Origin: an uncultured delta proteobacterium
GTDB taxonomy: Bacteria; Desulfobacterota; RBG-13-43-22
DNA: 64,000 nucleotides
Direction of reading: 5' to 3'
Assembly: GCA_963743305.1 (NCBI GenBank)
Contig: CAVUPH010000014.1
Coordinates: forward strand, 96,001 to 160,000
Positions 1,880 to 11,053 of this stretch are shown here, in pieces. A model generated the notes under the pieces. That model saw nothing but the letters and a program-made list of their open reading frames with translations. It made no database searches and was not told the origin of the DNA. A program made the translations under genes and the position numbers. Position 1 is the first letter of the stretch, and each line of letters begins with the position of its first letter.

Positions 1880-2689
1880 TTAGCCGAGAATTCCTTTCAA
1901 TACGCCGTCGGCGATCAGCCGGGCCTGCGGGGTTATGATCCAACAGGATTTCGGGTCTCCCCGGGGATCGATATCGCCGATCTTTTGTCCGGCCTTGACC
2001 TGGACTCCGTCACGGATCAGACCCCAGATCGTACCGGAAATATTCGCCAAAATCGGCTGGTCACAAACGGTGGCGATCACTTCATTCTTCTTTACCGCGT
2101 CACCTATTTTTTTTAAAGCCCGGAGAACTCCCTTTCCAGAGCTTATTATGAGCCGTTCCCTGGTGAACCCATAAATCTCCGTCGGAATCCCGGTTTCTTC
2201 TTCCGCCGGACCGTCAAAAATCAGACGGCCCAGATGGGGACTAGCTGGATTGGTCTCCACTACCAAATGGACATCGGTCCCAGCCACGAAGCCCGGTCCC
2301 AGAGCGATAACCAAAGGAGCCATCCTGATGGTGATGCCAGTATTTCTTTTGGCCATGACCGCGTCAATCAGGACGTCGAGATCTAAGCTATCCAGAATTT
2401 TTGTTTCCGGATCAACAAGGATGGGTATCAATCCATCCTCCCAACACTGACCGATCTCCGGCAAAAAAAGCCCTGATCTTTGGGCCGCCACCCCGCCCAC
2501 CTCCATCCGGCCGTCGATGACGGCTTCACAGAATGAAACACCTCTCCTTTCGGTGAGAGGGAGCGCCAGATCGGTCATTACGATCCTTCTCAGACCGCGT
2601 TGGTATAAGAGATGGGCTACGGCGCTGGCTTTCTCACCGGCCCCCTTGATCAATACGATATGTTCCTGGAGACGCTTTGGGGAGACCAT
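1880..2689 (-). CDS. yqeB: YqeB-family selenium-dependent molybdenum hydroxylase system protein (divergent)
   Basis: IDAVMAKRNTG, IALGPGFVAG, VVETN, GLIRDG, KIGDIDPRG motifs. Confidence 0.85.
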   Translation of the reverse strand: MVSPKRLQEHIVLIKGAGEKASAVAHLLYQRGLRRIVMTDLALPLTERRGVSFCEAVIDGRMEVGGVAAQRSGLFLPEIGQCWEDGLIPILVDPETKILDSLDLDVLIDAVMAKRNTGITIRMAPLVIALGPGFVAGTDVHLVVETNPASPHLGRLIFDGPAEEETGIPTEIYGFTRERLIISSGKGVLRALKKIGDAVKKNEVIATVCDQPILANISGTIWGLIRDGVQVKAGQKIGDIDPRGDPKSCWIITPQARLIADGVLKGILG

Positions 2690-2745
2690 GTGATTAGATT
2701 ATTCCTTCTTTCGGGCTTGATATTCCAAAAGATTTCTTTCTAAAA

Positions 2746-4664
<1,919 letters not shown>

Positions 4665-4706
4665 GAATTGAAATTTTCCTCGGAGACCATCGTTAAAGAT
4701 AGGATT

Positions 4707-4798
4707 TGGAGGGGGCAAGGGGAATCGAACCTCCTCCCGGGTTTCTAGACCGGGCCAACGGGTTTGCAGCCCGCGGGGCGCCCAGCCCCATTGCCCCC
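4707..4798 (-). tRNA. selC*: tRNA-Cys(GCA) with tRNA(Sec)-like 8/4 cloverleaf (selC* type)
   Basis: 8-bp acceptor stem GGGGGCAA/TTGCCCCC; D stem GGGGC/GCCCC; anticodon arm GCGGG-CT GCA AA-CCCGT; long variable arm CCCGG/CCGGG; T arm GG(A)GG-TTCGATT-CCCC; discriminator U and encoded CCA. Confidence 0.92.
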
Positions 4799-5069
4799 AC
4801 TGATTCACTTTATTATTACCCTATGGCTGATAGATCCCCATAGAGGTCCAATTATCCGGGGAAGCGACTTGACTGACTTGAGTTACGGATTCCGCCGGAC
4901 CGATTATAACTCTCACGGATTTCTGCTTCACCGGTGTCTGGGATAATTCAGCCGTGGTAATGGTCCAATCCCCCCTAACGAAGTTGAAAAGGTGCGGTCG
5001 GCCGGGGTTTACCCCCTTCCCGTTCAAAACGAATATCACCGTGCATAAGAAAAAATTCGACGGCCTGCA

Positions 5070-6242
5070 TCAATTCATCTTGGGGAGGCGTTTCATGATC
5101 TGGTCATGGCAGTTGGAGCAGCCCACGACCACCACGTTGGCCCCGCTCTCTTTGATCTGGTTGTATTTATACCGTCCGTGCCAGGCGGAATCTTCTTCAT
5201 AGGGCATGGGCCAATTCCCGCCGCCGGCCCCGCAACAGAAGTTGTTGGCCCGATTGGGAACCATATCCACGAATTGGTCCACGCATTGATCGATGATCCA
5301 GCGGGGTTCTTCATAATAGCCGTGCCCGAAGTTGCGTTCCAGTTCCCGGCCGTGTTTACAGGAGTCGTGCCAGGTAAACACCTTCCCCGCGTTTACGGAT
5401 TTATCCAGTTTGATTCGACCGGACAGGATGATTTCTTTTAAATAATCATATAAATAGATATGGGAAACCGCGTTGTTGGGATCTTCCAGCACACATTCCT
5501 TCATGCCTTTCTTGCAGCCGTAGGAACCGCCGCCGCAGTCCGGCATGATCATCCTTCCAATGCGGTGCTCTTTCATGAAGTCGATTTTCCTTTTGGCCAG
5601 AATCTTGGTAGCTTCCGCATTTCCGGTAAAGAGTCCCCAGTCCACGGCTTCCCAGTTTTCCGAGGGAACGGTCCAGTTCTCTTTAGCGGCATAAAAGATC
5701 TTCCACCACCATTTCATATCGTCGTTGTCGGCGAAAACTTCCTTGGAATTGGGAAAGAAAAGTATTTCGGCGTCGTCTTTGTCCACCGGCACATAAAAGC
5801 CCGCCAATTCCTCGTCGGCCAGTTCTTTCCCCAAATCGGACAAGAGAAAGAAATAATCCGCCTGCGGAATGGCCATATTGTTGCCGGTGTTCAGTACATT
5901 TTCGACCCCCTTATGCAAAATACCCGGCACCTGGTCCCGAGGCCGGAGGGATTTCATAAAACCATTGATTCCGACGATGTCTATGCCCATGGGACAACCG
6001 TGGACGCAGCGACCGCACCCGGTGCAGATCCATGGAAATTTGGAATTGACCACTTCATCGACCATGCCGAAAACCAACATGCGGATGACCTTTCGGGTGT
6101 CCCACCCGGGCGTATGAGGCGATCCGCTGATCGGACATCCCCCGGAACAAGTGCCGCAGGTGTAGCAGCGATTCAGGTTGAATTTGGAAAGGTATTTTTT
6201 TAACTCTTCAGGTATTCGCTTGATATTTAATGCAGGTTCCAT
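5070..6242 (-). CDS. HdrD/HmcF-like (Fe-S)-binding oxidoreductase (2x4Fe-4S plus CCG domains); C-terminus appears truncated
   Basis: CYTCGTCSGGCP, CTGCGRCVHGCP, WHDSCKHGR, CCGAGGG, CSNCHDQ. Confidence 0.85.
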   Translation of the reverse strand: MEPALNIKRIPEELKKYLSKFNLNRCYTCGTCSGGCPISGSPHTPGWDTRKVIRMLVFGMVDEVVNSKFPWICTGCGRCVHGCPMGIDIVGINGFMKSLRPRDQVPGILHKGVENVLNTGNNMAIPQADYFFLLSDLGKELADEELAGFYVPVDKDDAEILFFPNSKEVFADNDDMKWWWKIFYAAKENWTVPSENWEAVDWGLFTGNAEATKILAKRKIDFMKEHRIGRMIMPDCGGGSYGCKKGMKECVLEDPNNAVSHIYLYDYLKEIILSGRIKLDKSVNAGKVFTWHDSCKHGRELERNFGHGYYEEPRWIIDQCVDQFVDMVPNRANNFCCGAGGGNWPMPYEEDSAWHGRYKYNQIKESGANVVVVGCSNCHDQIMKRLPKMN

Positions 6243-6263
6243 ATCCTCCTCCTATCCTTAGTA

Positions 6264-6686
6264 CTAAGCAGCGGCCCGTTGGGTGAATAGCGGCCCTAAT
6301 CTTTTTATTTTCTCCGTAAAATCATGGCAGGTCTTGGCGAACTGGGGTCCCATGGCGGATGAATTATAATAGATGTCCACCCGCTCCGGTTCCATCCCGC
6401 ATTCCTGGAGGTATTTCTTGACCTGCGCCACTCGTTTTGTGGCCCTATGGTTGCCTGATAAGAAATGGCAATCCCCCAGCAGGCACCCCGATAAAAAGAC
6501 ACCGTCCACCCCTTTCTCAAAAGCGTGGAGGATATGAATAACATCGACGCGCCCGGTACAGGGGACCAGAATAATCCGGACATTGTCCGGATATTGCAAA
6601 TGCATGGAACCGGCCAGATCGGCGGCGGCATAGGAGCACCACCGGCAACAATAAGAAATGATTTTGGGTTCGAAGGTATCTTCCAT
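6264..6686 (-). CDS. mvhD: MvhD/FlpD hydrogenase iron-sulfur (delta) subunit, all-Cys form
   Basis: YCCRWCSYAAADLAG, VPCTGRVD, SGCLLGDCHF; RBS GAGGGGG before ATG at 6686. Confidence 0.9.
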   Translation of the reverse strand: MEDTFEPKIISYCCRWCSYAAADLAGSMHLQYPDNVRIILVPCTGRVDVIHILHAFEKGVDGVFLSGCLLGDCHFLSGNHRATKRVAQVKKYLQECGMEPERVDIYYNSSAMGPQFAKTCHDFTEKIKRLGPLFTQRAAA

Positions 6687-6780
6687 ATGCAACCCCCTCA
6701 CTTGAATGGAATAACGATTTTAAGAAAACGGCTTGTCTGTAGGCCCCACTTCATCGCCTGAAGGGACACGGCCATTAAAC

Positions 6781-6812
6781 GAACTTCGTCCCTGAAAGGG
6801 GGACGATAGCCC
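6781..6812 (-). terminator. Hairpin in the mvhD 5' leader (possible attenuator terminator)
   Basis: TCGTCCC-CCTTTCA-GGGACGA core extended by GGGCT/AGTTC; only a weak U-tail (GTTTAAT). Confidence 0.4.
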
Positions 6813-6858
6813 TCGATCCTTTCCCTAAAAAAGTCGCTTAAAATTTAATAAGAGGGTG

Positions 6859-7017
6859 TTAAAAAGAACGGCGGGTCTGGAAGGCGGAACCGTCGCTCAT
6901 CACCCTGATTCCTGATGTATGCCTTGGACGCAGAACCTGCGCCTTATTGCCCCAAGATCATAGGCTGGGCATTCAACGGACGGCGATGAGCCTGTTTGGG
7001 CAATAGTGATGGATCAC
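6859..7017 (-). CDS. Putative leader peptide with two in-frame UGA codons (14 aa, or 52 aa if both are read through)
   Basis: GGGAGGTG RBS 7 nt (from GGAGG) before GTG at 7017; UGA at 6973-6975 and 6958-6960; TAA at 6859-6861. MIHHYCPNRLIAVR-U-MPSL-U-SWGNKAQV...RRSF. Confidence 0.6.
6923..6956 (-). promoter_or_regulatory. SECIS-like hairpin 3' of the leader UGA codons
   Basis: Upper stem GGCGCAG-GTT-CTGCGTC; core GCAGGTTCTGC versus E. coli fdhF GCAGGTCTGC; lower stem CTTGG/CCAAG. Confidence 0.6.
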
Positions 7018-7332
7018 GGTCTCACCTCCCTTCTTTCGATTGGACGGATCTTTGAAGATATGGAACGATTTGTTTCGATCTTAAAAAAGCCACGAAACCG
7101 CTTCTTGTTCAGACTATTAAATTGAGCAAAACAGGGGTCGATTTTCCCGTCCTGATCGGCCGGGAAAGACCGCATTTTTTACCCTAAGGGATTATAATTT
7201 CCAGGACCTAGAAATTAGAGGGATAATCAAGTGAAAAAAGTGGAGGGAAGGGAGAATGGGTATAGGTAACTCATTAGGCTGACACCTTATATCATTAAAA
7301 GTGATTAGTCAAATAGAAAATAACCATCCTTT

Positions 7333-7821
7333 TCAAGGGGCCATCGTAAAATGCCCTCCAGCCCGGCGAATTTCCTCCAAAACGGTTTTGACCAGTTCCG
7401 GGACCCGGTTTTTCACAGTGGGGGTCAGTTCGTCGGACCAAGGGGAATAATCCTCGGGCTCGATGCCCAGCACCACCGTTTCGGGTCGGTTGCCCACCAA
7501 TTCGCAGCAGGCCAGGGTTTCCAGAAGGTCCGTTTGGTGAAGAGAATACTTAAAAGCTACGCTCTTGCGGACCTCTTCGCCGGTCAGGCGATAAAACGTT
7601 CCCGGAGATTGGCCGTTTAGTACGGCATCCACCACGATTAACGAATCCGAGGAGATTATGGCGTCCATCAGTTTGATTCCCAAGGTCCCCCCGTCCATGA
7701 GGGACACATTCGGAGAAAAAGAATAGTCTGCCTGGAGTCGCTCCACCACGCGCACGCCGACTCCCTCATCGCGCAGCAGGATATTCCCCACCCCTAATAC
7801 CAGTATTCGCTTCTCCGGCAT
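7333..7821 (-). CDS. HyaD/HybD-family hydrogenase maturation protease
   Basis: LGVGNILLRDEGVG, DGGTLG, VVDAV, SLHQ. Confidence 0.93.
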   Translation of the reverse strand: MPEKRILVLGVGNILLRDEGVGVRVVERLQADYSFSPNVSLMDGGTLGIKLMDAIISSDSLIVVDAVLNGQSPGTFYRLTGEEVRKSVAFKYSLHQTDLLETLACCELVGNRPETVVLGIEPEDYSPWSDELTPTVKNRVPELVKTVLEEIRRAGGHFTMAP

Positions 7822-7878
7822 TCACTTATCCTTAGAATCATGTCTATCAAAAATTTCTTTGGCAAACAAATCGGGCAC

Positions 7879-7929
7879 TTTCACCTCCGCCCTCTTCCCC
7901 CATCGGGGAGGAGGAGGGCGGAGGTGAAA
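7879..7929. terminator. Long GC-rich hairpin after the hydrogenase large subunit (terminator or mRNA stabiliser)
   Basis: TTTCACCTCCGCCCTC...GAGGGCGGAGGTGAAA, 16-bp perfect arms. Confidence 0.7.
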
Positions 7930-7931
7930 AT

Positions 7932-9623
7932 CTATGACACTTTAAATTCGTACACTTCGTTGGTTTGCGGATCGATGACATGAACCCCGCAGGCGATGCA
8001 GGGGTCGAAGGAGTGGACCGTCCGTAATACCTCCACCGGGCGCTTGGGGTCCGCCACAGGGGTGCCGATCAAGGCTTCTTCCACCGGTCCCAGCCGGCCC
8101 AGAGCGCAACGGGGTCCCAGGTTCCAGGTGGAAGGCACCACCAGTTGATAGTTTTCAATCTTTCCGTCTTTTTGGGTAATCCAGTGGCTGAGCGCTCCCC
8201 GAGGTGCGGTGACAAACCCGACCCCGCTGGATTCCTTGGGCATTTTCCATTCGGCGTACAGGTTGGTGTCCCCTTTCTTAACGTTGGCTTCCATCTGGTT
8301 CAGCCAGACCTCGGTCTTGGCGGCGATGGCGGCGCATTCGATGCCCCGGGCGGCCGTCCGTCCCAGGGTGGAAAACAGGGCTTCCGGTCCCACGCCTAAG
8401 TGTTTCAGAACCGTATCCACCAGCCCTTTGCACTCCGGCTGACCTTTGGCATAAGCGATCAAAACCGTGGCCAAAGGCCCCGTTTCCATGGGTTTGTTAT
8501 GGTAGCGGGGGGCCTTCATCCAGGAATAGCGGTTCTTATCGCTTAATTTGGTATATTTCGGCTTGGTTACACCCTTTGAGGGTTTCCGGGATTCCGTCCC
8601 TTCATACCAACTGAAGGCCACATGCTCCCGGATATCCGCAGGATCAAATTTCTGGACATTGGCCAGGTCCCGTTTCATGATCACCCCGGCCGGCAGCCAT
8701 CGGCTTTCCAGGTCGGTTTCGGTCTCCGGGAATTCCCCGAAGCTGAGAAAATTCGTACAGCCTCCGATGGCCCCCCAATTTTTATAAAAGGAAGCCACGG
8801 CCAGTAGGTCCGGGATGTAGACCTCATCGATGAACTGTTTGGTCTCTTTGTAGAGGTCACGGAATTCCTTGAAACGTTCCGGGGTCAGGGCTTCGTAGTT
8901 GGTGGCCCCCCCCACCACGGTAAATTGGGTATGCGGGTTCTTCCCACCCATAACCGCCATCATGCGGGCGGCCTTGACCTGCAGCCGCAAGGCTTCCAGG
9001 TAATGAGCGGTAGCGATCAGGTTGACTTCCGGAGGCAGGACATAAGCCGGATGGCCGCCGAGGAAATAGGCGTTGGTAAAAATACCGAGCTGTCCATTGT
9101 CCACGAAGGCCTTTAACTTGGCCTGAACCGCCTTAAGGCCTTCGGCAGTGGTTTTGCGGTTGGGGGAAATATCGTTGGCCAATTTGGCGGCTTTGGAGGC
9201 GTCGGCCGTCAGTCCGCTGGTCACGTCCACCCAATCCAGCGCGTGCAGGTGGTAAAAATGAACGATATGGTCGTGCATGAACTGGCTGGCTAAGACCAAG
9301 TTACGCATCAATCGGGCGTTATCGGGGATCTTGACCCCCACGGCGTTATCGACGCAACGGGTGGCGGCCAGGGCATGCACGTAGGTGCAGACCCCGCAGG
9401 CTCGCTGGGTAATATGCTGGGCGTCCCGCGGATCGCGCCCTTTTAAGATAATTTCGAGGCCCCGGAAAAGCTGGGAACTGGACCAGGCATTGTGGACCTT
9501 TCCGTTTTTCACCTCCACCTCGATCCGCAGGTGTCCTTCAATCCGAGTAATGGGGTCGATGACGATGGACCCGGAATATCCGCCCCCGACAGGGGCGGCA
9601 GCGGGTGTTTTCTGTTCGGCCAT
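7932..9623 (-). CDS. Periplasmic group 1 [NiFe] hydrogenase large subunit
   Basis: TRIEGHL, QRACGVC (L1), SFDPCIACGVH (L2) plus cleavable tail; Cys rather than Sec in L2. Confidence 0.97.
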   Translation of the reverse strand: MAEQKTPAAAPVGGGYSGSIVIDPITRIEGHLRIEVEVKNGKVHNAWSSSQLFRGLEIILKGRDPRDAQHITQRACGVCTYVHALAATRCVDNAVGVKIPDNARLMRNLVLASQFMHDHIVHFYHLHALDWVDVTSGLTADASKAAKLANDISPNRKTTAEGLKAVQAKLKAFVDNGQLGIFTNAYFLGGHPAYVLPPEVNLIATAHYLEALRLQVKAARMMAVMGGKNPHTQFTVVGGATNYEALTPERFKEFRDLYKETKQFIDEVYIPDLLAVASFYKNWGAIGGCTNFLSFGEFPETETDLESRWLPAGVIMKRDLANVQKFDPADIREHVAFSWYEGTESRKPSKGVTKPKYTKLSDKNRYSWMKAPRYHNKPMETGPLATVLIAYAKGQPECKGLVDTVLKHLGVGPEALFSTLGRTAARGIECAAIAAKTEVWLNQMEANVKKGDTNLYAEWKMPKESSGVGFVTAPRGALSHWITQKDGKIENYQLVVPSTWNLGPRCALGRLGPVEEALIGTPVADPKRPVEVLRTVHSFDPCIACGVHVIDPQTNEVYEFKVS

Positions 9624-9675
9624 TATAATATCCTCCTTAGATACATTAATAAAATAAAGGGGCAGCTAGATCGAC

Positions 9676-10629
9676 TTAGCGCTGAACGTAAAAGGGTGCC
9701 ATCTTGTCCCAAAAATCCGGTTCGCTGCAGCCGATGCAGGGATGTCCGGCCTGTACCGGCCAGTTGGTCTGGTTGAACTTAATTTTGGGACAATTGTTGT
9801 ACGTGTCGGGTCCTTTACACCCCAATTGGTACAAGCACCAGCCTTTCTTGGCCTCTTCCGAACCGAAGGAGGGGGCATATTCCTGTTTGTCGAAGTGCGG
9901 CTGCCGTGGGCACTGGTCGTGGACCGTTTCACCGTAAAACATGACCGGACGGTTCAGGGCGTCGAGCTTGGGCATCCCTTTGGTCAGTAAATGGACCACC
10001 GTCCCGACGAAATTATAGGGGTTGGGCGGACAGCCGGCGATATTTATGGCCTTGACGCCCAGCTTCTTCAGGGCGTCATTGACCCCTTTGGCCCCGGTGG
10101 GATTGGGCTTGGCCGCCTGAACCCCGCCGAAGGTGGCGCAGGCCCCGATGGCGATCACCGCCTTGGCCTTGGGGGCGATTTCACTGCACATCTGATACAT
10201 GGTCTTTCCGGCGATTTTTCCGTAAAGGCCCCCATCTTTGGTGGGGAGCGCCCCCTCAATGACGCAGATGTAACCCTCCGGTGATTTCAGTGCCTGGTGC
10301 AAGGCGTCTTCCACCGCCTGGCCGGCACCGGCCATGAGGGTTTCGTGGTAATCCAGGGAGATTGTGTCTAAGATCAATTCATCGATATAAGGGTCGACGG
10401 TTCTCAGAACCGCTTCGGAACATCCCGTACACTCCGCATTGTGCAGGTAAACCACCGAAGGCCGCTTTTTGGCCGTCAGGGCGGCGGCAATCTCTTTGAC
10501 ATAAGAGGCCTCCAGGCCCATCACCGCGGCGACTGTACCGCAAAATTTTAAGAAATCCCTTCGTGAGATCCCCCGGTTTCGAAGTCGTTCTTCGGCATTT
10601 GGTTTGGCCAATCCAATTTCAAACTTCAT
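9676..10629 (-). CDS. [NiFe] hydrogenase small subunit with Tat signal
   Basis: [46 protein letters not shown]. Confidence 0.97.
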
Positions 10630-10858
10630 ACATTGCCTCCTTTTGCAACATTTTTTACCAGTGCGTGATCAAATCGGTGTGAATGGCCTAATTAAAAAAA
10701 GTAAAACTTTCCCCCCAATTCCCCCCTGACTTTAATATTTTTGTCTCCCCCCTTCCCTGGTGAATTTTTTGGATATTATTACGTTTTTAGTTGCGTTTTC
10801 AACTATATTATTTGTTCTGGAAGGTATATTCAGAGAAAAGGCCATAGGTTAATAAATA

Positions 10859-11053
10859 TCAACTAGTTGGCCTCCTAGTTCGGCGTAGGGATAGCCGAAT
10901 AATGTTTAGCGGGCCCGATTTTTTTCGATTTTTCCGTGGGAGGTCTCTGAGTTTTGTTGTCCAGTCTATCCCGTCAAATCCGTTTTCCCGGGCAAGCTGT
11001 CTTAGGTAATTTGGATCAGTTAGGAGGTTGAAAAAAGGCGGTTTAGGAATCAT
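10859..11053 (-). pseudogene. Probable N-terminal remnant of a sugar-phosphate isomerase/AP-endonuclease-2 TIM-barrel gene
   Basis: LRQLARENGFDGIDW resembles the first helix/strand of this family; sequence then degenerates. Confidence 0.4.

Follow-up and report, generated by a model that had tools for sequence, protein, structure and literature searches.

The DNA analysed here, termed the window, is a stretch of 64,000 nucleotides (nt) from an uncultured delta proteobacterium (GenBank assembly GCA_963743305.1, contig CAVUPH010000014.1, positions 96,001 to 160,000). Judged by its conservation, the segment at window positions 7037-6886 on the minus strand is a real, conserved cis-regulatory leader of the operon mvhD(Cys)-hdrCB(Cys)-selC*-selB*, which encodes cysteine (Cys) forms of redox proteins together with an unusual tRNA-Cys (selC*) and a SelB paralogue (selB*). 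The leader holds a short reading frame with two in-frame UGA codons, a hairpin resembling a selenocysteine insertion sequence (SECIS) and an enclosing helix. At a probability of roughly 0.55, we read it as a conserved regulatory frame whose UGAs report the capacity of the cell to decode selenocysteine (Sec) and thereby switch selenium-independent genes. Coordinates throughout are window positions, and all parts of the leader lie on the minus strand.

In many anaerobes key redox enzymes exist as Sec and Cys pairs, and the selenium supply determines which form is used. Archaea use the protein regulator HrsM; to our knowledge, how bacteria sense selenium status for the Sec/Cys switch is largely unknown, and the two-UGA leader may be the means by which these bacteria sense their selenium supply. 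A preliminary description, made from the letters of the window, had proposed a selenium-sensing attenuator at this place. Its two-UGA leader, hairpin, enclosing helix (a) and Cys-backup genes stand after the present analysis, and its proposal of a second helix, (b), as the switch does not.

Structure of the leader

The Shine-Dalgarno (SD) sequence GGGAGGTG (7030-7023) ends 5 nt (AGACC) 5' of a GTG start codon, its GGAGG core lying 7 nt 5' of the GTG. The frame opened there (7017-6859) has 52 codons from the GTG (7017-7015) to a TAA (6861-6859) and, translated with TGA=U, is interrupted only by TGA at codon 15 (UGA1, 6975-6973) and at codon 20 (UGA2, 6960-6958). Its order is thus GTG, 13 more codons, UGA1, AUG CCC AGC CUA, UGA2, 32 codons and UAA. 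The near-perfect ribosome-binding site, the GTG at 7017, the length of the frame and the positions of both UGAs had been reported in the preliminary description and were all found again, as was the hairpin that follows; the other sequence features on its list, the imperfect AGGGTG...CACCCT hairpin (c) among them, also proved to be where it had placed them.

This hairpin, GGCGCAG-GUU-CUGCGUC (6943-6927), has a stem of 7 base pairs (bp) and the loop GUU; its folding energy is -9.6 kcal/mol (z -3.38), a stability reached by none of 200 shuffles. Bacterial SECIS elements, by the criteria of bSECISearch and E. coli fdhF, are hairpins just 3' of the UGA with the apical loop about 16-37 nt away and a G/U in the loop. 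Counted from the U of UGA2, the loop G-U of the leader hairpin stands at +25/+26, in agreement with these criteria; counted from UGA1 the loop is at +40, outside the range.

The two longest local inverted repeats of the gap in which the leader lies are helices (a) and (b), which cross and are hence mutually exclusive in the window, as had been claimed. Helix (a) joins 7005-6995 with 6955-6945 (11 nt, 91% complementary). Its 5' arm UAUUGCCC (7005-6998) falls within codons 5-8 and its 3' arm GGGCAAUA (6952-6945) between UGA2 and the hairpin, and both UGAs are therefore enclosed by it. Helix (b), seen in the window only, pairs GCUCAUCGCC (6991-6982) with GGUGAUGAGC (6904-6895) over 10 nt, by nine Watson-Crick pairs and one G-U. 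An outer helix is formed by GACCGU (7021-7016), which covers the G and U of the GUG start, and ACGGUU (6893-6888), joining the start codon to a stretch 123 nt downstream. Further on, at 6806-6777, lies the terminator-like hairpin (d), UCGUCCC-CCUUUCA-GGGACGA (stem 6806-6786) with the T-rich tail AGUUCGUUUA. Also listed in the preliminary description, it is the sole terminator-like site on the minus strand in a terminator scan, and it is a candidate for the expression platform. Longer stretches of the leader fold modestly compared with shuffles (z -2.14 for 354 nt, -1.05 for 146 nt and -1.43 for 121 nt).

Conservation in a second genome

The window segment 7045-6770 was searched with blastn against 400 other genomes sampled from the phylum. 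Nine genomes gave marginal matches, eight of them pieces of 23-37 nt; only the match in G090, a genome of another family, spans the core, and it does so exactly from UGA1 to the end of the hairpin. The G090 element, on a contig of 3392 nt, consists of GGGGGTG, 6 nt, GTG, 13 codons, UGA, AUU CCC AGC CGC, UGA and the hairpin GACGCAG-GUU-CUGCGUC. It aligns with the window without gaps from the SD through the hairpin, with the GTG start, the SD-start spacing and the UGAs at codons 15 and 20 all the same. Conservation in relatives had been proposed as a check on the element, and in G090, where the flanking gene is only 63% identical at the protein level, the SD, the GTG, the 14-codon distance, both UGAs and the hairpin are indeed kept.

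Identity is concentrated in two islands, from UGA1 to UGA2 (16/19) and in the hairpin (16/17, the difference turning a G-U pair into A-U in G090). It is 14/22 from the SD to the GTG, 15 of 39 nt in codons 2-14 and 6/13 in the spacer between UGA2 and the hairpin, and falls to 23/66 in the next stretch downstream of the hairpin and to 35/100 further downstream, where hairpin (d) lies; the flanks are only 35-38% identical. The start, the frame length and both UGAs are thus kept while the peptide ahead of the UGAs varies. Past UGA2 the next in-frame stop comes after 32 codons in the window and after 35 in G090, the sequence between being unconserved.

Helix (a), which the preliminary description had listed among the visible alternative pairings, is kept in G090 through compensatory changes: it becomes GUUCUGU/ACAGAAC, with three of eight pairs changed on both sides and 15 of 16 cells paired over the two sequences. 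The outer helix is GGCCGU/ACGGCU in G090, where a G-C pair replaces one A-U pair, and all 12 of its cells in the two sequences are paired. When the outer helix, helix (a) and the hairpin are taken together, 41 of 42 cells pair, against 36-43% with the partners slid, and four pairs are changed on both sides. Helix (b) fares differently, as only 3 of its 10 positions pair in G090.

Behind the G090 leader stands a gene for an HGD-D family protein that is 63% identical to the product of the window gene at 17499-16222; in G000 and G016 such HGD-D genes are found on the strand of the selC* operon, 5-13 kb upstream of it. G090 also has a canonical tRNA-Sec (75.6 bits). Since both genomes have such high-scoring tRNAs (75.1 bits in the window genome), Sec decoding exists in both.

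Searches beyond this pair gave little. Leader searches by nhmmer and blastn against all collected loci and the window's own genome found nothing, and the 631-nt leader DNA had no match in 40 relatives. A covariance model, R2, was built from the window and G090 copies; weak matches to it in G141 and G091 are without UGA1 and were read as chance. Among known RNA families, a search of window 6000-8000 against Rfam at E up to 10 returned only eukaryotic families at chance level, and none for the leader. DNA contigs covering the leader match the window except for one inserted G, and diverged pieces cover coding parts only, which leaves no population variation to compare at the leader.

Chance occurrence of the architecture

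The leader layout was turned into a scan pattern that asks for an SD, an ATG or GTG and, as the first stop, a TGA within codons 5-20. A helix of 8 bp or more must have its 5' arm finish no further than 8 nt ahead of that TGA, and a hairpin of 5 bp or more must lie inside it. The pattern matched the leader once, at GTG 7017, and matched 9 of 2000 dinucleotide shuffles of the leader (0 of 2000 when the helix was at least 10 bp), a chance figure that is generous because the ranges were chosen after the window had been seen. Over the whole window, on both strands, there were two sites; over 22 oriented loci (218 kb, both strands) there were seven, three of which are true leaders. Matches in L066 and L067 run antisense to a gene and were set aside as chance. 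The conservation of the leader in G090 is a stronger argument than these scan statistics.

A second class of leaders

The nearest operons of the same layout, in G016 and G013, carry a different leader, here called class I (the window type being class II), which starts about 30 nt after the promoter-like box described below. A set of class I leaders was assembled from a phylum sample, a metagenome scan and a covariance model, R1. It holds at least 27 copies (18 in alignment A6, then 9 more) at no fewer than 27 loci in at least nine families, for example L006:7003-7106(-), L007:6703-6806(-), L051:6831-6934 and L225:3866-3969.

The class I layout consists of an SD, a start, eight codons ending in the residues G-F-T, a UGA, the hairpin CUACC-CGUGUUU-GGUAG and an enclosing helix of 8-13 bp. 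The UGA is present in 27/27 copies, the start is ATG in 25, GTG in one and TTG in one, and eight codons precede the UGA (nine in G024). A purine run resembling an SD (AGGA/GGAG type, some weak) stands before most starts, as read by eye in the first nine copies. G-F-T comes directly before the UGA in 25 of the 27. Across the 18 aligned copies the G-F-T codons are invariant at their first and second positions and vary at the third (C14/T4, T15/C3 and C17/A1), the variants being GGC/GGU, UUU/UUC and ACC/ACA, with ACU among the nine later copies. Because only third positions vary, the codon pattern indicates that the G-F-T peptide of class I is under selection.

The class I hairpin has its loop G-U at +26/+27. 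In an independent MAFFT alignment 86.3% of the cells of the enclosing helix and hairpin pair, compared with 31-60% when slid, and seven pairs are changed on both sides, a number reached by 2 of 500 shuffles. An in-frame stop follows the UGA by 33-45 nt, just before the 3' arm of the enclosing helix, in 16 of 18 copies. Another hairpin may form as an alternative (GUAGCU...AGCUAC; A6 columns 43-64). It begins immediately 3' of the UGA and uses the CUAC strand of the conserved hairpin, with 66.7% of its cells paired against 17-50% slid; a ribosome sitting on the UGA would favour the conserved hairpin over this alternative.

Eleven class I copies lie 65-290 nt 5' of selC* (anticodon GCA or UCA) and selB*. 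Nearly all tRNAs read behind class I leaders have U before the CCA end; that of G399 has A. Among the UCA-anticodon tRNAs in this position (L225, L226, L050 and others), four of five read have U before CCA and two of these four have A1:U72, and by these features they are classed as selC*(UCA) tRNA-Cys, not tRNA-Sec. In such selC*(UCA) operons the operon's own tRNA could read the leader UGA, an arrangement that could amount to autoregulation. Class I leaders also stand before mvhD-hdrCB-selC*-selB* in G016 and G013, before genes for an HdrA-like protein and MvhD in one metagenome contig, and before mvhD genes, presumably Cys forms, 62-70% identical to that of the window in G069, G028, G146 and G114.

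Class I belongs to no Rfam family found, L006 and L007 giving only tRNA-Sec for selC*. The window was not matched by R1 (core GGCUUUACCUGA, CUACC/GGUAG hairpin and P1 helix) at E up to 10 with filters on, nor with filters off over 2500-11000, and R1 against the whole window genome returned nothing below E 0.1. Conversely, R2 had no match at class I loci. A global alignment of the window leader with that of G016 scored 95, not significantly above shuffles (81 +/- 8). Class I is an independent analogue of the window leader, unrelated to it in sequence. Its UGA is single and its peptide conserved; in class II there are two UGAs, and the peptide is unconserved.

The pattern GGCTTTACCTGAAG with one mismatch, run over 401 genomes, gave counts like those of a reversed-pattern control and was thus uninformative, except that it flagged sites in G024 and G370; two exact 14-mer sites in G186 and G134 are not leaders. 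A metagenome pattern scan gave at least 121 matches in at least 120 stretches, at least four of them true class I leaders, and covariance-model searches of L101-L150 added three more (L108, L148 and a second in L125).

Some class I loci have a layout worth recording. In L227 (G370:C364) two class I leaders stand back to back, at 3603-3706(-) and 3856-3958(+), one leading into selC*(UCA)-selB* and the other facing the contig end. Signs of decay behind class I leaders were seen in G013 (L007), where mvhD is reduced to residues 92-134, and in G010 (L005), where 68 nt of selC* are left and ARAGORN calls no tRNA.

The operon and its selenocysteine/cysteine setting

On the minus strand, genes for the small and large subunits of a NiFe hydrogenase and the HycI protease (10629-7333) are followed by a gap of 630 nt and then by the operon. 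Its first gene is the Cys form of mvhD (6686-6264; PF02662, motif CCRWCSY), the second a Cys-form gene for an HdrC/B-like Fe-S protein with a CCG domain (6242-5070), 85-88% identical to the G016 and G013 proteins. Next come selC*, a tRNA-Cys of 92 nt with anticodon GCA and U before the CCA end (4798-4707; 50.8 bits with the Rfam tRNA-Sec model), and selB* (4663-2746). A 1-nt frameshift near 3497-3490 divides the latter into two frames, 4663-3411 and 3387-2746: judged against the SelB* of G016, which is intact at 643 residues, one base has been lost in TTCCGAGG (3497-3490), a non-homopolymer site. This selB* may be a genuine pseudogene, or the assembly may have slipped here.

Further MvhD paralogues of the window genome contain an in-frame TGA, on contigs C26 and C33 at the position of the Cys in the window's motif and on C8 and C10 at other positions. 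The genome has a canonical tRNA-Sec on C6 (75.1 bits) and a canonical selB on C4. A search with MvhD in a collection of genome contigs gave 16 loci at 41-59% identity, none with selC*, and these threw no light on the leader. In genomes of the same genus the sole hdrCB counterpart is a paralogue of 45-47% identity that contains one TGA (5 of 5 searched), and there is no selC* (0 of 3). The operon is accordingly a selenium-free backup module of uneven distribution. This agrees with the preliminary description, which had taken the downstream genes for a Cys backup: they are Cys paralogues of selenoproteins together with selC* and selB*.

Eight nucleotides, GCAGGUUC, are common to the leader hairpin region and to the Sec-mvhD on C26, and the loop GUU is common to that on C33. 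The predicted C26-type SECIS fold, kept across five genomes (GGACCU-GGC-AGGUUC), places GCAGGUUC in a different register.

Proposed mechanism and alternative explanations

The most likely function of the leader is to report on the cell's ability to decode UGA as Sec. Translation of the frame and a role of its UGAs as Sec reporters are suggested by the retention of start, frame and UGAs without peptide conservation, by the Sec/Cys context, by the parallel design of class I and by the open read-through frames. The two UGAs would be tandem sensor codons, like the tandem Trp codons of trpL. With SelB and Sec-tRNA(Sec) plentiful, the hairpin would be bound, Sec inserted, and the ribosome would continue for about 32 codons, passing the hairpin and the 3' arm of the outer helix. 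With Sec-tRNA scarce, the ribosome would halt or come off at one of the two UGAs, within the loop that helix (a) closes. Fold and ribosome position would thus differ between the two cases, and these would decide whether transcription or translation proceeds into the selenium-independent genes. Because of what the operon encodes, it would be expected to be on when selenium is short. Candidates for the decision structure are the terminator-like hairpin (6806-6786) and the outer helix, which would hide the start until a ribosome reading through the UGAs opened it. Helix (b), the switch strand of the preliminary description, is, given its poor pairing in G090, not supported as the switch. As for the broader proposal that two unrelated leader classes are both Sec-tRNA-sensing attenuators, switching on selC*, SelB* and the Cys forms of MvhD, HdrA and HdrCB, we give it an even chance.

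Several points weigh against the proposed role. UGA1 lies 40 nt before the hairpin loop, too far for SelB by the E. coli rule, and the SECIS hairpins predicted for the Sec-mvhD genes of the window genome are unlike the leader hairpin, having either a GGC loop or one of 11 nt. The class has two members only, R2 having found no third in 151 phylum genomes or 65 loci. The two-sequence shuffle control is weak, with 31 of 500 shuffles reaching the observed values, and no conserved terminator was found, although no counterpart of hairpin (d) was sought in G090. In G090 the leader precedes an HGD-D gene, which is no recognised Sec/Cys paralogue, and neither a TGA-containing HGD-D paralogue nor selC* was found in G090; its tie to Cys backup therefore rests on the neighbourhood in G000 and G016. 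Finally, the module may be decaying in the window genome, where selB* is frameshifted and whose congeners are without the operon.

Other explanations share part of this evidence. The hairpin could be a protein operator without a sensor frame, that is, a SECIS mimic through which bound SelB or SelB* represses or activates the operon directly, as is reported for the SECIS-like element of the E. coli selAB leader; the UGAs would then be kept as part of the site or its context. The hairpin is after all the best conserved piece (16/17), codons 2-14 are unconserved (15/39), and selB* sits within the same operon in the window. A pure protein site, however, needs none of the SD, the GTG, the exact 14-codon distance and the two in-frame UGAs that are all kept, and G090 has no selB* beside its leader and no selC* that was found; we regard this explanation as unlikely, if the strongest of the alternatives. 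The same retention of an SD and start at a fixed codon distance, with in-frame UGAs exactly five codons apart, speaks against a structured RNA, riboswitch-like or a small RNA, in which the UGA triplets would serve folding or ligand binding and have no link with selenocysteine. Two helices kept by compensatory changes would suit such an RNA, and the absence of an Rfam match leaves room for an undescribed one, but a long read-through frame is open in both genomes and the window has its Sec/Cys context, so that we think it improbable.

It is more doubtful still that the element is decayed or accidental, the class I leader of the G016 and G013 operons having been lost here and the features being leftovers or chance. 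The window is matched neither by R1, even with filters off, nor by the DNA of any of the 40 relatives searched; selB* is frameshifted, same-genus genomes are without selC* and Cys hdrCB, and helix (b) is unconserved. Decay would nevertheless hardly leave islands of identity with G090 at the UGAs and the hairpin amid unalignable flanks, or compensatory pair changes, and the architecture scan matches only 9 of 2000 shuffles. Least probable is that the leader encodes a small selenoprotein with two Sec, which would have 52 residues, or 55 in G090. Read with UGA as Sec, the frame does run to its TAA in both genomes, and the hairpin is at a SECIS-like distance from UGA2; on the other hand, no homologue was found among the near-length proteins searched, and the peptide differs between the genomes outside the nucleotide-conserved islands. 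A Sec-reporting regulatory frame thus remains our preferred reading.

Comparison with known systems

The trpL, hisL and pheL leaders of enteric bacteria are the standard examples of ribosome-mediated attenuation by leader peptides. The window leader resembles them in its short frame, its tandem candidate sensor codons and its competing helices ahead of the genes presumed to be regulated. It differs in that the codon proposed to be sensed, UGA, needs SelB, Sec-tRNA and an mRNA hairpin and not ordinary charged tRNA, and in that no conserved terminator/antiterminator pair was identified here. The expected logic is also inverted, with the genes on when the special tRNA is scarce, because they replace products of that tRNA rather than make them. 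In tnaC, arrest of TnaC at a UGA stop senses tryptophan, and the in-frame UGA of prfB senses RF2. There too, expression of sequence downstream or in the same gene depends on what happens to a ribosome that reaches a UGA in a short frame, and the G-F-T of class I recalls an arrest peptide; unlike the proposed leader, these systems sense tryptophan or RF2 and not Sec decoding, and the window peptide is unconserved.

Thanbichler and Bock reportedly described, in 2002, a SECIS-like element in the 5' leader of E. coli selAB that works through SelB binding without a sensor frame. Both that leader and the window leader place a SECIS-like hairpin before an operon encoding a SelB-type factor, but the window leader keeps a start codon, a frame and two UGAs. 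In fdhF(Sec) of Treponema primitia, according to the passages of Matson et al. 2013 (PMC3892789) on this gene, failed UGA/SECIS decoding uncouples translation from transcription, and the amount of transcript changes with the selenium supply. In those passages control is shown only within the Sec gene: the UGA lies inside the selenoprotein gene and lowers its own transcript, whereas here a dedicated leader precedes Cys genes.

The tRNA-Cys selC* and its selB* partner are the system described in the main text of Mukai et al. 2017 (PMC5389517), and the window operon, having the same tRNA-Cys type and a selB paralogue, belongs to it by the features given there and in the selC/SelB passages of a review (PMC7609411). 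The main text of PMC5389517 contains no mention of SECIS, mvhD, heterodisulfide or operon, and uses 'upstream' once, in a figure legend; the passages on selC/SelB in PMC7609411 describe no such leader. No selenocysteine-based leader-peptide attenuator was found in full-text searches of the literature, and no published name for the class I leader. Class I itself is a further parallel, sharing with the window leader the operon type, the box, the succession of SD, start, short frame and UGA, a loop G-U about 26 nt on and an enclosing helix, and differing from it in that the window leader has no sequence or covariance-model similarity to class I.

If the proposed role is correct, UGA codons that are read only with Sec-tRNA and SelB would make a direct and simple selenium sensor. 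If the broader proposal for both classes holds, bacteria of this phylum would gauge their Sec-decoding capacity directly on the ribosome, and theirs would be the first attenuator in nature to make use of a recoded stop codon. The data also give the orphan selC*/SelB* system a regulatory context, and R1 and R2 provide two RNA models for finding more members.

The promoter-like box and neighbouring features

A promoter-like box, TTTTCTATTTGAC, with a -35-like TTGACT, lies at 7320-7308 (minus strand), just behind the hycI stop. The same box, ATTTCCTAT[T/G]TGAC, also stands before selC* operons or leaders in L006, L007, L051, L052, L056, L057, L059 and L060, 5' of the G016 HGD-D gene (L295) and 5' of a MauE/DoxX-rhodanese pair in the window (19824-19812, minus strand); genome-wide there are 14 similar sites. 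A generic sigma-70 scan gave no minus-strand site at 7320-7308. The box probably acts as a promoter and marks the start of the leader transcript, which, from the box alone, we infer to begin near 7277, giving the leader a length of some 590 nt. The box may be the operator of a regulon, or simply a strong promoter form. A transcription start downstream of 6860 is probably not the case, because the box stands upstream at 7320-7308.

Upstream of the leader frame, a 53-codon open reading frame (7175-7014, minus strand) ends in a TGA that overlaps the GTG start of the leader (GTGA). Protein searches with the leader frame and with this 53-residue product gave no candidates among near-length proteins. 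The segment 7175-7120 (ATG-CGG-TCT-TTC, with a hairpin and its U run, 7172-7120) was considered as a core-deleted class I relic and dropped as evidence, local alignments scoring no higher than shuffles. The leader was likewise considered as a remnant of a Sec-mvhD 5' end, and tblastn of MvhD gave no match in it. Elsewhere in the window, at 7877-7931, a hairpin of about 24 bp with chance-level matches to Rfam miRNA families lies between the hydrogenase large-subunit gene and hycI.

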